Origin: Nitrososphaerales archaeon
GTDB lineage: Archaea > Thermoproteota > Nitrososphaeria > Nitrososphaerales > UBA213
DNA length: 64,000 nt
Assembly (NCBI GenBank): GCA_965197925.1
Contig: CBDAOC010000019.1
Coordinates: forward strand, 416,001 to 480,000
Direction of reading: 5' to 3'
The notes under the pieces are model-generated. The model was not told the origin of the DNA. It did not search any database and saw only the letters and a list, made by a program, of their open reading frames with translations. The translations under genes were made by a program, and so were the position numbers. Shown piece after piece: positions 10,104 through 52,999 of the stretch. The stretch's first letter is position 1. Each line of letters opens with the position of its first letter.

Positions 10104-10243
10104 GTTCCCTCACCTTGACGGCATTCCATGCACAAAAATTCACGATCGGCTGGATTCGAGCAGTCGCACTTCCCTATCGTGCTGTGAAAGCTGCATCCAG
10201 CGCATCTTATCTTATGCTCATGTATCGATACATTGGTAGTCAT
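10100..10243 (-). CDS. 47-aa zinc-finger microprotein (possible excisionase or regulator)
   Basis: MTTNVSIHEHKIRCAGC...CDC...FLCMEC; ATGA overlap with the upstream RHH gene; conserved at 41407-41550. Confidence 0.75.
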   Translation of the reverse strand: MTTNVSIHEHKIRCAGCSFHSTIGKCDCSNPADREFLCMECRQGEGT

Positions 10244-10428
10244 GCTTCCACCTCGGTTTTACGGTTCATTTGAGTGGCCTCATGATAGTCTACCTCTTTT
10301 CGTAAATCATGCTGAACCAATTGTGAAAAATTAGTAAATGGTTTGTTATGACCGCATATTTCATCACAATAAAATTTCAAACTTCTAGGAATTTTTATTG
10401 TGATCCAATCATCAGTTGTTTGTTTCAT
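10240..10428 (-). CDS. ribbon-helix-helix regulator
   Basis: WITIKIPRSL...FTNFSQLVQHDLRKEV. Confidence 0.7.
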   Translation of the reverse strand: MKQTTDDWITIKIPRSLKFYCDEICGHNKPFTNFSQLVQHDLRKEVDYHEATQMNRKTEVEA

Positions 10429-10537
10429 ATGTTATATATTACATATACATCTATTTATAGATTATGTAACATTTTGCATAAAATAGTTCAATAAAAAAAC
10501 ATATAAAATTAATAAACAAATATGTAAAGTTTAACAC

Positions 10538-10915
10538 ATGGTAGAATGGGAAACAGTGGCAATACCTAAATCGTTAGTAGAACAGATTGAAAAAATCATA
10601 AATTCAGAATATGGAGCAAAAATAGGCTTACGAAATAAAAATCAATTTGTGACAGATGCTGTTAAAAAACTAATTCAAGAATGTTCAGAACGCCTCAAGC
10701 ATATAAACATGTACGATGACCACGTAAAAATTATGGACAACAAGCTTGGTAAATTGGGCAGAATCGTATCGGTATACTTTAAAAAAGGAAATAATCCATG
10801 GTGCGACTACTGCGAGGAGCCAGACTGCATCCATGTCCAGTACGCATGGGAGATTGCAGGCGTGCGGAAGATTCTGGAAAAATATAGGTTTAGTCCTCCT
10901 CCGTCAAGGGTCTAA
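10538..10915 (+). CDS. RHH regulator with C-terminal CxxC...CxH zinc domain
   Basis: WETVAIPKSLVEQI...NQFVTDAVKKLI; WCDYCEEPDCIH. Confidence 0.8.
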   Translation: MVEWETVAIPKSLVEQIEKIINSEYGAKIGLRNKNQFVTDAVKKLIQECSERLKHINMYDDHVKIMDNKLGKLGRIVSVYFKKGNNPWCDYCEEPDCIHVQYAWEIAGVRKILEKYRFSPPPSRV

Positions 10916-39510: not shown

Positions 39511-40381
39511 CAACTCATCTCAAAACTAACCATTTAGACAATTTTTAGCGGCCATTTAGATCTATGAATAGCGACATCTAAAATTATTTTATGAAATTCC
39601 AAGAATTATCAGACAAACAGTGGAGTATGATGGAATCACACATACCACCACATGCAAAAACTGGCAGGCCTAGGGATTATGATAGAAAAATCATTAACGG
39701 AATAATCCATGTTCTAACTACTGGATGCCGATGGGACGATATGCCAAAAAGATATGGTGATGATTCTACTGCAAACAGAAGGTTAAACAAATGGCAACAA
39801 AAAGGAATCTGGAAAAAGATTCTATCGCGTACTATTCACTCAGCACATAAATCTGGCAAAATTAATCTACAAATATCAGTTGACTCTTCATCCATTCCTG
39901 ATAAAAAAGGGGCAATGTAACTGGATATAATGGATTCAAGAGAATAACAGGTACAAAAATACATGCCGCAGTAGAGAGTAACGGATTTCCAATATCCATA
40001 CTGTTGAGTCCAGCAAATGAACATGACAGTACAAAATGCATGGATGTTACAGGATCAATTTCAGACTATCTTGATGATGATTCAATACAACAGATAGAAC
40101 CAGTTTATGCAGACAAAATGATGCAAAATACATCAGAATGTATTTGTGGGATAGAAATATTGCATGTTGCATCCCATACAAAATAAATTCCAAGTTCATC
40201 TTGCAAAATAATGATTGCAAACATTACAGCAAGACAAGATTTGTAGTTGAGAGATTCCTTGCATGGCTCAAGAATGGATTTCACAGAACAAGAATCAGAT
40301 ATGAAAGAACGGCAGAAAACTACCTGGCATTTGTTAATCTTGCATCATTTTTGATGTATTGTAGGGTTTTGAGATGAGTTG
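39511..40381 (+). mobile_element. IS5-family (IS427-like) element Y, truncates the copy-2 integrase
   Basis: TIRs CAACTCATCTCAAAAC; inverted relative to X. Confidence 0.92.
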
Positions 40382-41410
40382 ATAATAATCACTTAATGCC
40401 GATGCAAGTTCTCTCTCCAATGCGATGACACGTGCATTGTTGCCAATATCACTAGTACAAAATGTTGCACCGTGCTTCACACGCTTGATTATTTCAATGA
40501 CCTTGGGATGTATTGCCATCTTGTCGAAAGCACGGTCTGTCTTGGACTCGTATAACGGCATGATTGCGTATTCATCATGAACGCCCCTGGCATCGATTGG
40601 CTTGATCTCAAATTTGTTCACCATTGTAATCCCCGTCTTGGTCCTGGGAAAGACCTCGTGCATCACTCCAAATAATTCTTCAAAACCATAACCATGCATG
40701 AACTTCAACCCTCGTTCAAACTCCCTATCTGTAAGCTTCACATTGGCATATGCGCCAAAACGCTTCTTCTTGCCAGACATGATGCCTGTGATTCCACGTG
40801 GAATTGCAACACCATTCCTGATCATGAAATTACGGGTTGATGATACATAATTGGTTATCTCTCTGGCACCAAAATCGATATTATTGTTGAATTGATGTGC
40901 ATGCCTTGTCTCACCTGCCTTGAACATTCTTTCAAACTCCTTTAGCAGGGCAACGCTTGTATCAATATCTTGTAGGAATGCATCCGGGTGAACATTCAGC
41001 GTGTTGCATACAACGTTCAAACCCTGTATCATATGATTAACCGATACCGCTGGCTGCCCATTCTTTCCAGCGGTCATCAAGTCGTTGAACCATTTCTGGA
41101 CTGATGGAATCTGTAAGAATTGAGACTTTGCCATTTCTGCATATTGTACCTGCTTCCTGTCCTGTTCTGACCTAAGTAGACGACCAGTTGTAGGATCTTT
41201 TTGTAGCTTGCCTTCCCTGACCAACATTTGCCATAGTTCCCATACCCACTGTTCCGAACGGTTGATCAACTTTGCAATCTCCTGCCTGTTCTTTGGCATG
41301 ATACCCTTCGATCGATTGCCGACCGTATGCTCATAGACTTGCTGCAGTAGTTGTTGTTTATCCTGTGGTTTCTTTACACGTTGTTTATCCCAGGAGAATC
41401 TAGTTCTTAT
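40382..41410 (-). pseudogene. integrase copy 2, catalytic C-terminus removed
   Basis: High identity to 8703-10103 up to ALSDYY, then IS. Confidence 0.85.
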
Positions 41411-41550
41411 GCTCCCTCACCTTGATGGCATTCCATGCACAAAAATTCATGGTTGGTTGGATTCGAGCAATCGCACCTCTCTATCGTACTGTGAAAGTTA
41501 CATCCAGCGCATCTTATCTTATGCTCATGTATTGATGTGTTGGTAGTCAT
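41407..41550 (-). CDS. 47-aa zinc-finger microprotein
   Basis: MTTNTSIHEHKIRCAGCNFHSTIERCDCSNPTNHEFLCMECHQGEGA. Confidence 0.75.
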   Translation of the reverse strand: MTTNTSIHEHKIRCAGCNFHSTIERCDCSNPTNHEFLCMECHQGEGA

Positions 41551-41708
41551 GCTTTGGTCTCCAGCTTGTCTAGTTTTTCACGAATAACTAAATCGATAAA
41601 TTGGTTAGTATTAGTCATGCTTGGGTCGGTCTTCTTTTTGATTAGATCTTTGATTCTTTTTGCTAACTCATCTCTTAGCCGTGCTGTCGTCCAACCTTTT
41701 ACTGTCAT
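41547..41708 (-). CDS. ribbon-helix-helix regulator (53 aa)
   Basis: MTVKGWTTARLRDELAKRIKDLI...NQFIDLVIREKL; same position as 10240-10428. Confidence 0.7.
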   Translation of the reverse strand: MTVKGWTTARLRDELAKRIKDLIKKKTDPSMTNTNQFIDLVIREKLDKLETKA

Positions 41709-41760
41709 ACTATAAATATACTATAAATCCTATTTAAATGTTTATAGTATATTTATAGTA
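41708..41760. promoter_or_regulatory. operator-like repeats in the divergent promoter
   Basis: TACTATAAA twice, TATTTAAA, then TTTATAGTA twice (inverted). Confidence 0.6.
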
Positions 41761-41827
41761 TTTTTTCACAACATAGAATTAAAAATCAGGCATAGCCTTT
41801 TATTAAAATATCTGGTAATAATACTAT

Positions 41828-42214
41828 ATGGTAAAAGAAACATGGTCAGCAGCTAATGTGAGAATTTCGTTACTTCGCAGAATTAAAAAAGCGTTAGAGT
41901 CAGAAGAAGCAAAAGAAGAAGGGTTAAACAACGTTAATCAATTCATTGATTCGGCAATACGAGATCTATTAGAAAAATTAGAATCCGAACGCTTCAAGCA
42001 TATAAACATGTACAACGACCACGTAAAAATTATGGACAACAAGCTTGGTAAATTGGGCAGAATCGTATCTGTATACTTTAAGAAAGGAGGTAATCAATGG
42101 TGCGACTACTGTGAGGAATCAGACTGTATCCATGTCCAGTACGCATGGGAGATTGCAGACGTACGGAAGATTCTGGAAAAACGTGGGTTTAGTCCTCCTC
42201 CGTCAAGGGTCTGA
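41828..42214 (+). CDS. RHH regulator with C-terminal zinc domain
   Basis: C-terminal half near-identical to 10538-10915; N-terminal half different. Confidence 0.8.
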   Translation: MVKETWSAANVRISLLRRIKKALESEEAKEEGLNNVNQFIDSAIRDLLEKLESERFKHINMYNDHVKIMDNKLGKLGRIVSVYFKKGGNQWCDYCEESDCIHVQYAWEIADVRKILEKRGFSPPPSRV

Positions 42215-42248: not shown

Positions 42249-42620
42249 TTACAGTGTAGTTATATTATCATGGGAATAAGCCAGGGTTTCATGCCTGGGG
42301 AGGTTCTGCATCCAGAGGGCGATGATCTTGATTGGAATTTTATAGGTTACCCCCTTGCGTTCTATTGTGACAGAGATGTTGTGCTCCGGGAACAACATGA
42401 ATCTTTCCGCCTGCCGCCTGTATTGTCTTGCCGCAAGATTTAATGTGCCTTCCAGCCACCTGTTATTTTTTTTGTACAGCCTGACCTTGCCGAAACAGCA
42501 TACACACCGATCCTCGATTACGCTGGCATGATGCCTGCAGTTCTCACAGAACACTACATGCCTTCGTCTATCTTTAAAACTTGATTTGAGTTTTCTGCAT
42601 TTAATTTGAACACTGTTTAT
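42249..42620 (-). CDS. Cys-rich element protein (GTG at 42554 or ATA at 42620)
   Basis: FCENCRHH...CVCC; conserved in copy 1. Confidence 0.7.
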   Translation of the reverse strand: MNSVQIKCRKLKSSFKDRRRHVVFCENCRHHASVIEDRCVCCFGKVRLYKKNNRWLEGTLNLAARQYRRQAERFMLFPEHNISVTIERKGVTYKIPIKIIALWMQNLPRHETLAYSHDNITTL

Positions 42621-42997
42621 TCCTGCCCATCCTTGGGGGCAAACATCTTGTTGATGTCTTTCTTGCCCTTTACATCACCATCGTACTCATAGCGCACCTT
42701 GGTCTGTGTCAGCTCCTTTATCAAGGCACCATTGATTGACCTGGTCGCAGTCAGTGACCTGATGAACAGGTTGTAATAATCCCTTGCAAGGTGCCTTAGT
42801 TTCGGCGGCAGTGCATGAATCAATAACGGTATGTGCTCTATCTCAAAAACTACCAGGGGAAGTGCATCCGTGCTTATCATTGAAGAGTAGAGCTGTCTCA
42901 GGAGATCCGGGTAGTAGCTATCGCCCTGCCTGTTGCTGTTGCTCTCCTGTATAAGTTCCATCAGCCTATCGCTGGACATGTCCTGGTTATGCAGCAC
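42617..42997 (-). CDS. element hypothetical protein
   Basis: 126 aa; conserved in copy 1. Confidence 0.75.
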   Translation of the reverse strand: MLHNQDMSSDRLMELIQESNSNRQGDSYYPDLLRQLYSSMISTDALPLVVFEIEHIPLLIHALPPKLRHLARDYYNLFIRSLTATRSINGALIKELTQTKVRYEYDGDVKGKKDINKMFAPKDGQE

Positions 42998-43015
42998 ATG
43001 GTTATAACGTTGAAA

Positions 43016-44031
43016 TTAGATTGCGTCATTCACGGTTGTCTTTTCCTGTGCCACCCTGACCAGGGTTTCATGTCGTTTTTTCCTTTCCTGCCATAACTCC
43101 TCACGCAGTATTTTCTCAACCTCTTCCCAGTCAATTTTGCATTCATGTGCATACCTGTTTATCGCATTGAATATAGAGCGTGTCCTGCTTTCAATTGCAC
43201 CGGTTCTATTCTGGTTGAAGTATAGGTACCACCACAGGCATGCCCATACCTTGTCCCGGCCATTTTCTGCGAGCAATTTATCCATGAGATCCCTTGCAGG
43301 CATTTCCGCCCCGTGAAAATCCTTGGCGCACTTGTTGCATCCATCCCGGTAATAGAGTATACCATGTAATTTACCTAGCTCACTAATCAATGCAATGCGG
43401 AATGGGTTGTGCGTGTGATAAGTGTATTTTCCTATCCTGAACTGCTTGCGCAGCAGCATCGAGCGGTACAGCCTGGTGAACCTGTGCAGTTTCATTGCGT
43501 TCTTGTACCCAAATAACTTCTGGAAGTTGTCCATCTCCTCATCCGATATCGAGGTAACAATCTTGAAATCCGTGTCACGGAAGAACTTCTCAAGTGCCTT
43601 GCTATAGTGGATGTTCATGAACACGATTACCGGGTTCCTCACCTCGTGCCTTATCGTCGTCAGGCCTGCCGCCAGCTTGTTGCGCTCGGGTTCAGACATC
43701 TCTGCAAAGGTATAACTGGCATCATCGAATTTCAATATTGATGGTGCCTTTGGCATCTTCTTTATGATGTTGTGAACATCCATCAGTTCATCCGCCCCGT
43801 AATCGTAGACTGCAAAGTTCTTCCTCTCATGCAGCAAGTGGGATAACAGGGAAATTATCGTGTTTTTCCGGACCCGCTGTGCCCTATCGATAGTATGCCC
43901 GTGTAGCCGCTTAATGAGTTGTGGTTGAGGATATTGTTGATTACCAGGTTCGGTGAGTGCTTCTGCAGGATTGGGATGCCTAGCAGCGTCGTGGTCCTCT
44001 CACCGAAACGCTGTTGTTCTTGGTCGCTCAT
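43016..44031 (-). pseudogene. P-loop ATPase (A32/Zot-like motif layout), 1-nt frameshift just after Walker A
   Basis: GHSGSGKT, frameshift near 43860, then TIISLL; Walker B ILKFDD; IRH...VFMNIH...LEKFFR. Confidence 0.75.
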
Positions 44032-44311
44032 AATTCCATATCCTTGAATGTGCTCTGGAGGTATTCGCTGATGGTATCTTCCAGTTTTGGCAGTGCGTCG
44101 TTAGCCCACTCCACTGGGCAATGCCCATTGACGACGGTCTTGTATCATCCCTGCTCGGTGGCCTGGGTAGTTTACACCGTGCTGGTTTTGGCAGGACGCT
44201 GTTCATTGCGTTGATGCATAGCATGATATCATATACCTTGCCCTGCTGGATGGCAAATACTATGCCCTGCCTGTATTGTTGTAGTGCCGTTGTAAGTATC
44301 TGTAGCCCCAT
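44028..44311 (-). pseudogene. element ORF1 (about 94 aa), 1-nt frameshift
   Basis: Homologue of 12212-12498. Confidence 0.7.
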
Positions 44312-44494
44312 GTAGTAGTAGTAGTAGGGGGAGGTAGTTAATGACGTTGAAAAGCATTATAACATATTATATATATTATAGGCACTTCGTTCCTTCGTAT
44401 CGTCTGGCTACCCCCTGAAAAATGTTAATGTTTTTGACTTATTACTTAACTTTTTTAGTTCACTTTAACTGTTCCAGAACAGTTAATATCCCGT

Positions 44495-44569
44495 AATTTA
44501 GGTAGCCCCCTTTACGTAAAGAGGGCTACCTAGTACACACCTTTTTGCAAAAGGGGGGCTACCTAAATT
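44495..44569. repeat. tandem palindromes near the element right end, copy 2
   Basis: AATTTAGGTAGCCCCC...GGGGGCTACCTAAATT with internal TTTACGTAAA and TTTTGCAAAA. Confidence 0.85.
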
Positions 44570-44607: not shown

Positions 44608-45627
44608 TCAAGTTACAGGCACGTTATTCCCGATATACTGTCTTCTAGATTTATTTCCATACTTTATTGGTGAATCTTTTTCCCAAGCTACATACTCCCA
44701 TTTCCAATGTGTATGATTATTGTCATATTCAACCATAGCATGATTCGATGTATTCACAAAAACCACAGGATTGTTTTTTGAAAGATACCAATGCAATATT
44801 GATCTTTCAGGTGCAGGAGGTTCATCCTCATGTATACTGTCATAATAAAGGCAGTAGCCTCCACTGTGAATATCTTCAAAAATAAAATGAATAGCTACAT
44901 TATTTTCTGACTTGATCTTGAATGACTCAATATCCTTTATTCTACCATATCTTATCTTCCGATAAAGTCTATAAGGCCAATCGAAGACCCAATGTTTTCG
45001 AAGCCTTTCATCGTTAAAAACCAAGGATATATCAAAGTATCCGTTGTTATTATTATGACAATGAATTTCACGCAGGAAATTTTTCCAAGCATCTACATAC
45101 GGCTGGTAAATTACTGGTATTAGCCTGTCATCAGGAGGAGAACCTGTATCAAAAATAACATCATGACCTTCTTTCCTCGGTTTTTTTGAAACATATTCCA
45201 ATTCTTCAAACAAATTCTCAAGAGAATCGTCCCTTTCTCCTTCAAGTTGCCAAATCTCACATTGATCAAGGGATCTATCATCTTTCTCAAGGTCATTTTC
45301 TATTTTCAGCTTGATTACTTGTCTTTGATTTTCAGTTTGAGGAATGTTATTTCCAATTAGTGCTTCTGATACTAGCTTTGGTCTTTCAAAATTGATCACT
45401 ATTACACTCATCATTGAATCAACCGAAATCTCTCTCTGTTTAAATCTGCTGTAAATTCTCTCCCTCCTCCTAATTACCACTCTTACCTTTTGATTTCCAA
45501 GTGGTATTAAAGTAAACCTACAATTATCCCAATTCCAACTGCTTTTCTCTTTTGTCCAAAATTCCTCAAAACTTTTCTTTTTAGGTTCGTATTTTTCTTG
45601 GGTATAAGAAAACCAAAGATTTCCCAT
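44608..45627 (-). CDS. hypothetical protein; last about 11 codons supplied by element copy 2
   Basis: 339-aa ORF; the TCTAGA junction encodes SR near the C-terminus. Confidence 0.75.
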   Translation of the reverse strand: MGNLWFSYTQEKYEPKKKSFEEFWTKEKSSWNWDNCRFTLIPLGNQKVRVVIRRRERIYSRFKQREISVDSMMSVIVINFERPKLVSEALIGNNIPQTENQRQVIKLKIENDLEKDDRSLDQCEIWQLEGERDDSLENLFEELEYVSKKPRKEGHDVIFDTGSPPDDRLIPVIYQPYVDAWKNFLREIHCHNNNNGYFDISLVFNDERLRKHWVFDWPYRLYRKIRYGRIKDIESFKIKSENNVAIHFIFEDIHSGGYCLYYDSIHEDEPPAPERSILHWYLSKNNPVVFVNTSNHAMVEYDNNHTHWKWEYVAWEKDSPIKYGNKSRRQYIGNNVPVT

Positions 45628-45786: not shown

Positions 45787-46775
45787 ACTGTATCGAATAA
45801 TCAACCAGAAGATCGTGAATATTTGATAGAATGTGATTGTGATCAGTTATTATAATTGAGATTCATCCCTGATAGGAATTAGAAAAGGTATTATGTACTG
45901 GTACGAGTGAGAGATACTTCTTGATATGGATTTCATAGATTCACGGCCGGCTAATTAGTGAGAATAAATGAAGGTAAAGTAAGCAAGCAATTCGTGTATC
46001 TAGAATCATTCCTAGCGATGCTTTCTGTTGTGCAGGCTTATCTGCTAACAAACAGGCAGTTAGAAGGATTCACAAGGATGTTAACCAAAAATGTTGACCG
46101 TTCAGATACACCTGAATTCACAAACATAGCATGGAAAGTAGCGAAGATGGATATTAAGATAGACCCATCAATTATGGAAGAGGCTGTTATTATAATAGCT
46201 GCAGATTCCTCTTGCATAAAGGTAGAAAACAGGGGAGAATGGACAAGGAAGAAGTGGTATGTATGGGGATTCATCAAGATGCGTACAGCTATAGGTAAGG
46301 AAAGCAAAGAGATAGTTGTAAAGAGGGTAACTAGGAATGTACCTGAAGGCAAGAAGATGATACCCATGATATAAGGTGTTGAAGATAGGTATCGTGACCA
46401 AAGTGATACTAGATGGGGCTTATCATTCTAGAAGGAACTTCAGATTCCTTATCGATAACTATATTGAATCCACTGATAAAGATGAGAAGATTGCATCGCT
46501 CAAAGCAAAAGGAGGTATATGACCAGGAAGCTATCAGTACCAAAGCAGTAGGAGGATTTTGATGCATGGAAGAAGAATCATGAATATGGACATAGATGGG
46601 CTGCAGTATCGGTTTTCTCTGCATTCAAGGTATTTTTGGTGAACATATGAGGGCAGTCAAATGGTAGAATATGGTAAAGGAACTAATGCTAAACGCATTC
46701 ATATACAACATGTTCATTGCAATGAATCCAAAAAGGTTTGGATAATGCTATAATATAGTAATTATTCGACATAGT
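45787..46775 (+). mobile_element. IS5-family (IS903-like) element, decayed
   Basis: TIRs ACTGTATCGAATAAT / ATTATTCGACATAGT; AADSS.IK...RGEW, DGAY. Confidence 0.8.
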
Positions 46776-51912: not shown

Positions 51913-52999
51913 GAGGCTTGGGCGTAATTTAGTTCGAAACGATAAGATCAGGTTCTAGTTTTTATTGTTGATATGTTTAGCTCAGACTCGATACTTCTTC
52001 ATATATTATTTTTGATTGACGTGATTCGGACAAAACCTAATAGGAAAAGAGGTAGACCATTCTACTATTCTCCTACAGTTATGGTAGATGCTTCATCGTT
52101 AGAGTATGGGTAAGAATACCAGGCAACAATGTGTTACATCAATATTTTTCGTTAGACATGCCATACAACAGGAAGGTAATGAAGGCATGTGGTCTTAATA
52201 GATTACCAGACAGAAGAACATTCGACAGAAGGTTCAAGACCATATCAATTGACATAAGATCAAGGATAGGTGCTATGGGTATGCTCTTCATAAAAGATGG
52301 GTTGGTAGACCCAGCCATAGTATCCGTTGACAGTTCATTGTTGAAAGCAAAGGGACATGTATGGCATAGATCAAACATGAAGAAGAATGAAGTGCCACGC
52401 TCCGGTATAGATACAGATGCTCGATGGGGATTCAGCAGAACCAAGGATGGATATTCGGATACAAGATGCATCTAGCATGTAGCACAGGTTCGTTGATAGT
52501 TCCATTATCAGCTGATTTCACAACAGCTAACATTACTGATAACAAGATGTATGAAAGCATAACATCTTCATTGCCTACAGGAATGGTAAGGTATGTTGTA
52601 GGAGATGAAGGATATGATGATCACAAGTTATGTGATTTCAGCAGGTATAGAGGGCATCCAGTATTCCCATTGGAAAGGTACAAGCATACTACAGATAATA
52701 ATAGACTGGCATTGCTGCAGTTCTATAACTCTGAATTTGGACAGCATGTATATTCTCGGAGGAGCATAAGCGTTGAGCCATTGATAGAGCAGATAAAGGA
52801 TGTATTTGATATAGACCCACTACCTGTTAGAGGATTTGATAAGGTAAGGAGTATAGTGTTGTTATCAGTATTGTTGTATCAGGTAATGGTTTACTACAAC
52901 TACTTGACAGGAAGGCCTCTTAGGGCATTGAAGTATATGTTGGGAAACTAATAGTAATAATTTCAAAATAATATTATAATTGAATTATGCCCAAGTCTC
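51913..52999 (+). mobile_element. DDE_Tnp_1-type IS copy 2, frameshifted
   Basis: TIRs GAGGCTTGGGCGTAATT / AATTATGCCCAAGTCTC. Confidence 0.9.

Follow-up and report, generated by a model that had tools for sequence, protein, structure and literature searches.

The window, which is the whole 64,000-nucleotide stretch analysed here, corresponds to C19:416001-480000 of a Nitrososphaerales genome (G000) that comprises 2.9 Mb in 20 contigs and contains many insertion sequences (IS). It harbours a mobile element extending from 40382, where a tyrosine integrase gene is truncated by an IS5-family element, to the TCTAGA attachment (att) core at 44644-44649 (Table 1). A previous sequence-only reading had proposed an integrative, capsid-less element, a description that holds for this Nitrososphaerales host, and had placed it at 42249..44311, an interval that the element exceeds.

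Table 1. Features of the element copy found in the window and of its surroundings.
Feature	Position	Strand	Remarks
IS5-family element	39511..40381	+	16-bp terminal inverted repeats; outside the mobile element
Tyrosine recombinase remnant	40382..41412	-	upstream limit approximate
53-aa small regulator	41547..41708	-	no Pfam match
Perfect 21-nt inverted repeat	41707..41761	no strand	between two divergent regulator genes
128-aa regulator	41828..42214	+	N-terminus paralogous, with a Cys/His motif
101-aa Cys-rich protein	42249..42554	-	homologue in the G084 provirus sits after the 126-aa homologue
126-aa helical protein	42617..42997	-	start probably 42976; homologue in G084
Deletion junction	43000..43018	-	ATPase stop fused to AACGTCATAACC-type motif preceding the 126-aa gene
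FtsK-HerA/A32-type ATPase gene	43016..44031	-	split near 43860, 1-nt deletion after Walker A
ORF1, conserved partner upstream of ATPase	44028..44311	-	95 aa when intact; 1-nt deletion near 44110
AACGTCAT motif upstream of ORF1	44340..44356	-	also at other viral gene starts, that of the capsid-like gene among them
Nested inverted-repeat cluster, TAGGTA+6-mer arms	44495..44569	no strand	also in G084
TCTAGA attachment core	44644..44649	no strand	right end of the element
Host gene serving as target	44608..45627	-	final codons read through into the element

The IS5-family element removed the 3' end of the integrase gene and the left part of this copy, here named W; the remnant keeps the catalytic R and K and has lost xLRH, GW and Y, while the gene is full length (466 aa) in four other copies. 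The 53-aa regulator, which we take to be ribbon-helix-helix-like, and the 128-aa regulator, presumably of the RHH/Zn type and encoded by the gene with the greatest divergence of any between copies, are separated by an inverted repeat that is likely an operator. The AACGTCAT motif is probably a promoter or activator site. Copy W was inserted at a TCTAGA outside any IS. This site lies within the 3' end of a host gene, homologues of which terminate 7-19 residues further on, and no left-end partner of the copy was identified. Three lesions were found in copy W, namely the 1-nt deletions in the ATPase gene and in ORF1 and the cut of the integrase gene at 40381 by the IS5, so that this copy is dead and unable to act alone. 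Window positions 39591-40377, 45865-46600 and 52131-52951 contain short repeated elements and members of several IS families, the latter reaching ~110 copies; many of these sequences are frameshifted.

Other copies were found at C19:37-42 kb (A), C19:419-429 kb (B), C20:32-52 kb (C), C20:1009-1021 kb (D) and C19:72-87 kb (E, a long form), together with three partial copies (F, G and H). In all, the genome holds five integrase-bearing copies, eight right ends and 14 left ends, and the copies are 78-94% identical over long blocks. TCTAGA is present at all eight right ends and at 13 of the left ends, whose conserved second arm was found 14 times; copies B, C and D have it at both ends. Fifteen of the 22 ends (6 right and 9 left, in both orientations) split one multicopy IS, with ~60 copies in the genome, at an internal palindrome, and 68 of the 951 TCTAGA sites genome-wide lie in this IS context, element junctions included. 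Since the IS is cut internally, the element was inserted into the IS and not the IS into the element. Intact integrase copies show the R-K-HxxR-H/W-Y catalytic pattern; Pfam Phage_integrase was matched by two of the six aligned members, and the best PDB match was an Int protein (E 0.002). A tRNA integration target was rejected, as no tRNA was found in the window or in 11 loci. One pair of ends, at C19:115.6-143.6 kb, is a rearrangement with host genes lying between the two ends.

The sequence-only reading had joined a 273-aa ORF (43837-43016) across a frameshift to an ATG at 44031, thereby gaining a Walker A motif. This was confirmed: the 58-aa ORF at 44031-43855, which ends in GHSGSGKTR and a stop, and the 273-aa ORF are one gene with a single base missing after Walker A, and intact versions of 337-339 aa are present in three other copies of the same genome. 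Contigs of all four public runs examined, from three studies, span the break without a gap (one run may be the source of the assembly, and library types are not recorded), and an assembly slip was therefore rejected. A programmed frameshift was disfavoured, as no canonical slippery heptamer was seen by eye and intact alleles exist. The Walker B motif ILKFDD and the downstream TIRH, VIVFMNIH and LEKFFR, which had also been pointed out, are conserved in the aligned homologues. The protein search recovered 14 homologues among 259 candidates. The ATGA coupling of ORF1 to the ATPase gene stands for the ancestral frame only, as seen in copies A, E and G, and not for copy W, where the ORF1 frame, after its 1-nt deletion, extends 32 nt into the ATPase start.

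A structure model of the intact ATPase (alignment A1 with P0002 as first row; pLDDT 76) had as its best BFVD match a Nitrosopumilus spindle-shaped virus protein (A0A514K377; E 6e-11, TM 0.51, 16% identity), and numerous A32-like packaging ATPases ranked lower in the list. A wide structural search matched it to VirB4 (Z 14.2, 180 aligned), STIV2 B204 (Z 12.6, 164) and HerA (Z 12.0, 184). VirB4, DndH, STIV2 B204, HerA and TcpA align across residues ~19-231, whereas AAA+ proteins align over residues ~20-160 only, with Z 12.0 or less. A TnsC/DnaA-like AAA+ identity, which the earlier reading had named as evidence against itself, was rejected on this fold extent, despite the weak mixed Foldseek matches in PDB, with AAA+ chains on top (E ~1e-4). 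The protein has the features by which FtsK-HerA/A32 ATPases are recognised, that is, an ASCE core, Walker A and B, an Arg before strand 4 with a polar residue after it, and C-terminal strands past the AAA+ core. The model thus supports the assignment of the intact sister ATPases to the FtsK-HerA/A32 viral-type motors, as proposed from the motif layout, rather than to TnsC/DnaA AAA+ proteins.

At the sequence level, this family is related to spindle-virus ATPases including SSV B251. Homologue P0008 matched 12 records, ten of them genes of Nitrosopumilaceae spindle viruses and two, weakly, SSV B251 genes. The family profile matched B251 with a probability of 93% (hhalign, E 2.4e-7), significant only over the N-terminal part, and is colinear with it through Walker A, DDAS and the following Arg; PHROG 5484 (B251) was matched weakly by five of six scanned members (E 1e-4 to 0.017). 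In a quick tree of 35 rows, built from an unfinished search, the G000 ATPases form a group with metagenome proteins and the ATPase of genome G084, to which the three Nipumfusiviridae rows do not belong. Of 400 other genomes of the order, 5 contain an ATPase match at E 1e-8, and a metagenome scan gave 37 ATPase-family loci out of 185 pattern matches, many with an ORF1 homologue immediately upstream; the long loci inspected look virus-like by eye. No relatives were confirmed in viral contigs with the 273-aa ORF or alignment A2 as query, or in genome contigs with P0002. In metagenome contigs L043, L052 and L054 a PCNA-like ORF, recognised by eye, adjoins the ATPase-family gene.

The G084 genome contains a region of ~30 kb, delimited by eye (G084:C1:1133750-1164200; L013, L014, L088, L092), in which ORF1 and the ATPase are followed by membrane and spike-like genes, including a two-helix capsid-like ORF, and then by the 126-aa and 101-aa homologues. 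The same region holds the best integrase homologue among the 400 other genomes (34%, E 2e-55). It appears to be a complete provirus and is a candidate temperate spindle-shaped virus; no att repeat was found for it. Its integrase gene is centrally placed, and by eye the provirus ends near a tRNA-like gene. In the genome under study, long form E (C19:72.3-87.4 kb) carries ~11.5 kb of virion-module genes between the ATPase and 126-aa genes, exactly the interval occupied by virion genes in G084. Four of these genes match G084 and three match NMH1 (E 1e-21 to 0.004, the strongest of which may reflect PKD repeats). An integrase gene is missing from long form E, and its module is devoid of a capsid-like gene.

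Capsid-like genes are present elsewhere in the genome, at C19:118531-118785 and, as a second copy, at C13:79377-79796, so the earlier statement that no capsid gene is recognisable is true of copy W and not of the genome. The first of them lies in a separate fragment behind the same AACGTCATAACC motif that precedes the 126-aa gene. The protein is 49% identical to the G084 capsid-like protein, the gene having been found with an HMM seeded partly by G084 and G074 candidates, and its nearest named Atlas clusters are SSV VP1/VP3 and the His1 capsid (0.85), which is a lead only. An HMM of the 92-aa family failed to recover the genome's own 92-aa gene, so this link rests on G084. Fragments of virion genes are scattered at five or more loci, and a complete virus is absent from the assembly.

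Three further observations concern related loci. A membrane glycosyltransferase gene (PMT_2, E 6e-6) directly follows the ATPase gene in the long form (C19:74147-75178) and is also found at C19:407213-408247 and in the C20 copy G; according to Ni et al. (PMC10866085), most Nipumfusiviridae have no confident glycosyltransferase. A more distant provirus-like region in G074:C30 (L017:7400-16000) contains the ATPase, an 87-aa capsid-like ORF and small membrane genes. Possibly another short form is a mosaic island in G036:C72 (L015:12800-17600), where the ATPase is accompanied by a related integrase and by an ORF1 homologue duplicated in tandem; no capsid-like gene was noticed in it.

The virion block is absent, up to the motif before the 126-aa gene, from all five integrase-bearing copies, and its 5' breakpoints differ among W, A/B, C and D. 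One derived junction, with a leftover of the final gene of the module, is common to copies A and B; its two versions have since diverged (7 substitutions and 2 gaps over 78 columns), and the two copies are oppositely oriented relative to the IS. Differing breakpoints, together with the scattered virion-gene fragments, the lesions in most copies, the IS-rich scrambled genome and the lack of any circle seen, would be expected if whole viruses had integrated singly and been trimmed in place by deletion and IS, so that short forms never moved and the selection detected dates from viral life. However, such ordinary decay does not readily account for the loss of the same block up to the same motif in all five copies, for an old junction common to A and B at two sites, or for the att-bounded copies B, C and D, in which both ends are retained, the integrase is intact and the cargoes are unrelated. 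Decay in place is regarded as unlikely, though a serious rival.

Viral ancestry of the element is established by these comparisons. Full-length relatives with capsid genes, which the sequence-only reading had set against its model, have a counterpart in G084 with its capsid-like gene, which argues for a deleted virus and not for a plasmid with two captured viral genes. The element arose by deletion from a temperate relative of the Nipumfusiviridae and is no plasmid hybrid of the pSSVx type.

Gene integrity and selection vary among the copies. Copy A has ORF1, the ATPase and the 126-aa gene all intact, and it is the only one of the five integrase-bearing copies with an intact ATPase. Frameshifts interrupt the 126-aa gene of copies B and D, and W, B, C and D each have a damaged ORF1. 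Comparison between copies gave dN/dS values of 0.07-0.41 (integrase), 0.07-0.08 (ATPase) and 0.02-0.23 (126-aa gene, the lowest of any gene compared). The two small conserved genes previously proposed to follow the ATPase (126 and 101 aa) are real, being kept in six copies with dN/dS of 0.02-0.42. The copies are mosaic (ORF1 of A against that of long form E has a dS of 0), which prevents a clean dating of the deletions by dS. The 126-aa protein had no match in Pfam, PHROGs, Atlas or BFVD, and its low-confidence structure model gave no fold match.

It had been suggested that the element is a hijacker like pSSVx, which would keep a viral ATPase and its partner to redirect the packaging of a helper. 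The relationship of the ATPase to B251 and the intact ORF1, ATPase and 126-aa gene of copy A fit this proposal. Against it, the ATPase is lost or broken in four of the five integrase-bearing copies, including all three that are att-bounded (B, C and D, of 9.9, 20.2 and 12.2 kb, with a full integrase and no capsid-like gene), so the ATPase is not the retained hijacking part. In addition, every core gene is matched by one of the full provirus, and no A154-like partner was recovered, the 126-aa protein scoring 0.24% against A154 (hhalign, shallow profiles). An SSV20 ORF (10211-10681) tried as A154 proved C166-like. As the earlier reading had stated, no Rep (or primase) family was recognised among the element's proteins in Pfam and PHROGs, and no conjugation gene was seen in the element. 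A hijacker of this type is considered very unlikely.

Regarding mobility, intact IS bodies have a median identity of 95.9%, and the IS split by copy C is 99.8% identical to an intact copy, which suggests that already-diverged elements arrived in young IS targets, a pattern that IS homogenisation could mimic. The contig with the W junction and the frameshift has ~4x the host-flank depth in runs X3 and X9 and ~1x in X1 and X2, and the depth at the right end of D varies among runs as at the W junction; contig depth is not copy number, so these differences only hint at recent change. No circle or empty-site joint for D was found among the joints listed in the four runs, and contigs lose rare forms. 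A sponge-labelled run with a share of 0.06 was not counted as habitat evidence.

A virus-derived element without any helper might also produce this picture: bound to the cell, it would hop by its own integrase among the ~60 IS copies and be inherited vertically or with IS-bearing DNA. The integrase, intact in four copies and under selection (dN/dS 0.07-0.41), the dispensable ATPase, the abundant IS targets and the ~4x depth of the W block in two of four runs agree with it. Nevertheless, hopping within one genome should yield near-identical copies, whereas the observed differences amount to 6-22%, dS reaching 1 or more, and it leaves aside the viral repeat cluster and the 126-aa gene, both retained in all five integrase-bearing copies. 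We find this scenario unlikely, though again a serious rival.

The repeat cluster at 44495-44569 folds with a z of -3.9, and the 6-mer in its arms varies between copies and is mostly concordant across the arms within one copy. In G084 the same layout is found upstream of ORF1, inverted. Judging by these sequence features, the cluster is likely an origin or a packaging site.

Defence-type genes were found near the left ends: 20 of 34 ORFs matched PADLOC, against 2 of 34 host ORFs of the window, neither set being random and the cargo ORFs having been chosen by eye. The matches comprise type II and ISP restriction genes, Vsr, Cas1-2, Cas4, pAgo, AbiV-like and PD-T7-4; IS-driven rearrangement can place host genes between element ends, as at C19:115.6-143.6 kb. 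Beside a left end at G000:C15:87-93.6 kb (L103:1082-7583) there are a type ISP restriction gene, a short prokaryotic Argonaute gene (PADLOC E 7e-110) and a gene for an unassigned 780-aa P-loop protein, and a Cas1-Cas2 fusion with Cas4 was observed inside copy C (G000:C20:38.9-40.6 kb; L102:2917-4643).

Our preferred explanation, to which we assign a probability of about 0.52, is that copy W is a dead copy of an integrase-bearing element that derives from a temperate spindle-shaped-type virus minus its virion genes, integrates at TCTAGA and likely spreads in helper particles. Deletion of the virion genes would have produced a short element, which the integrase would excise and re-insert at TCTAGA, mostly within one multicopy IS. 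The repeat cluster would serve as origin or packaging signal, read through the copy-specific 6-mer, and the two regulators would set the switch. Motor and capsid would be supplied in trans by a helper, making the element's own ATPase dispensable. The stretch from the left end to the integrase would hold small early-type genes in the virus and defence-type cargo in the element, which would travel between cells in particles of a related helper virus. We infer this satellite-type transfer from the presence of diverged elements in young targets and from the lack of any conjugation gene among those recognised. Several observations speak against this explanation: the assembly holds no complete virus, long form E being devoid of an integrase and the capsid-like gene lying in a separate fragment; neither a circle junction nor an empty site was among the joints listed for D in four runs; the different junctions of W, A/B, C and D are also expected from independent decay; and the 126-aa gene (B, D) and ORF1 (W, B, C, D) are damaged in several copies.

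A wider reading is offered tentatively and with less confidence. A satellite family in ammonia-oxidising archaea might consist of stripped genomes of an unclassified temperate spindle-shaped virus, with the IS palindrome as a self-multiplying landing site, 6-mer identities, module swaps with helpers, and restriction, Argonaute, Cas and abortive-infection genes ferried between hosts in helper particles. Because the integrase site lies inside a multicopy IS, targets multiply with the IS.

The archaeal satellites pSSVx and SRCEs are, in the descriptions consulted, plasmid-virus hybrids. The present case adds another route, in which the virus itself undergoes deletion, and here the parent occurs in the same genome as its derivative. 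It also indicates that temperate, integrase-bearing relatives of Nipumfusiviridae occur as proviruses in Nitrososphaerales. Copies that naturally have or lack the ATPase, or differ in their 6-mers, provide a direct way to ask whether this ATPase, conserved in spindle viruses, has its role in replication or in packaging, and what cis site it recognises. If the satellite reading is true, this would be a new, virus-derived kind of archaeal satellite. No prior description of the element was found in the literature covered, which consisted mostly of papers outside subscription and whose supplements may list relatives.

The closest known viruses are the Nipumfusiviridae (Ni et al. 2024, PMC10866085; ICTV summary, PMC12451623). 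They share with the element and its long relatives a homologous ATPase (E 2e-22 to 3e-24), a partner gene at the same upstream position, NMH1 homologues of three long-form genes, a two-helix capsid-like protein and a Nitrososphaerales host. A closer ATPase homologue is only 24-30% identical to those of Nipumfusiviridae members, and the match of ORF1 to their Zn-binding protein is weak (N-terminal 46 columns, hhalign E 0.009, probability 4.5%), the Zn part being absent. In contrast to that family, the G000 and G084 elements are chromosomal with a tyrosine integrase, for which no match was found in the three Nipumfusiviridae genomes compared; their ATPases fall outside the clade of the three included members in the quick tree; and there is no major capsid gene in the window element or in B, C and D. 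Having no capsid gene, the element is not a member of this family.

Thaspiviridae include the Nitrosopumilus spindle-shaped virus that provided the best structural match of the ATPase. Their genomes are linear, of 27-29 kb (PMC8491892), and NSV1 is reported to encode a family B polymerase (PMC10866085), unlike the present element, in which none was seen. The cryptic integrated elements of Thaumarchaeota (Krupovic 2019, PMC6563490) resemble it in the tyrosine integrase, the very short att and an insertion that hits the 3' end of a protein-coding gene and replaces the C-terminus. The proviruses described in that article are of tailed or double-jelly-roll types, and the targets given in its section 6 are tRNA, intergenic and protein-gene sites, with no IS-internal site listed, although its supplements may list a related element.

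The satellites pSSVx, pSSVi and the haloarchaeal SRCEs are likewise capsid-less, carry a spindle-virus ATPase homologue and presumably use helper particles. In pSSVx and SRCEs, captured viral genes are combined with a Rep or primase of plasmid type (PMC9608457; bioRxiv 10.1101/2025.02.15.638363), and B251 and A154, both also on pSSVx, are implicated in replication and packaging (PMC9608457). The present element differs in having no recognisable Rep, in being wholly virus-derived and multi-copy in the chromosome, and in often dropping the ATPase. It likely works as a defective-interfering, satellite-like island rather than as pSSVx does.

P4-like and PICI phage satellites combine an integrase, regulators, a cis site and variable defence cargo with the absence of a full virion module, an organisation that the element resembles. 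They belong to a different virus realm and host, and the satellite-like form described here differs from them as the direct deletion product of its presumed helper.
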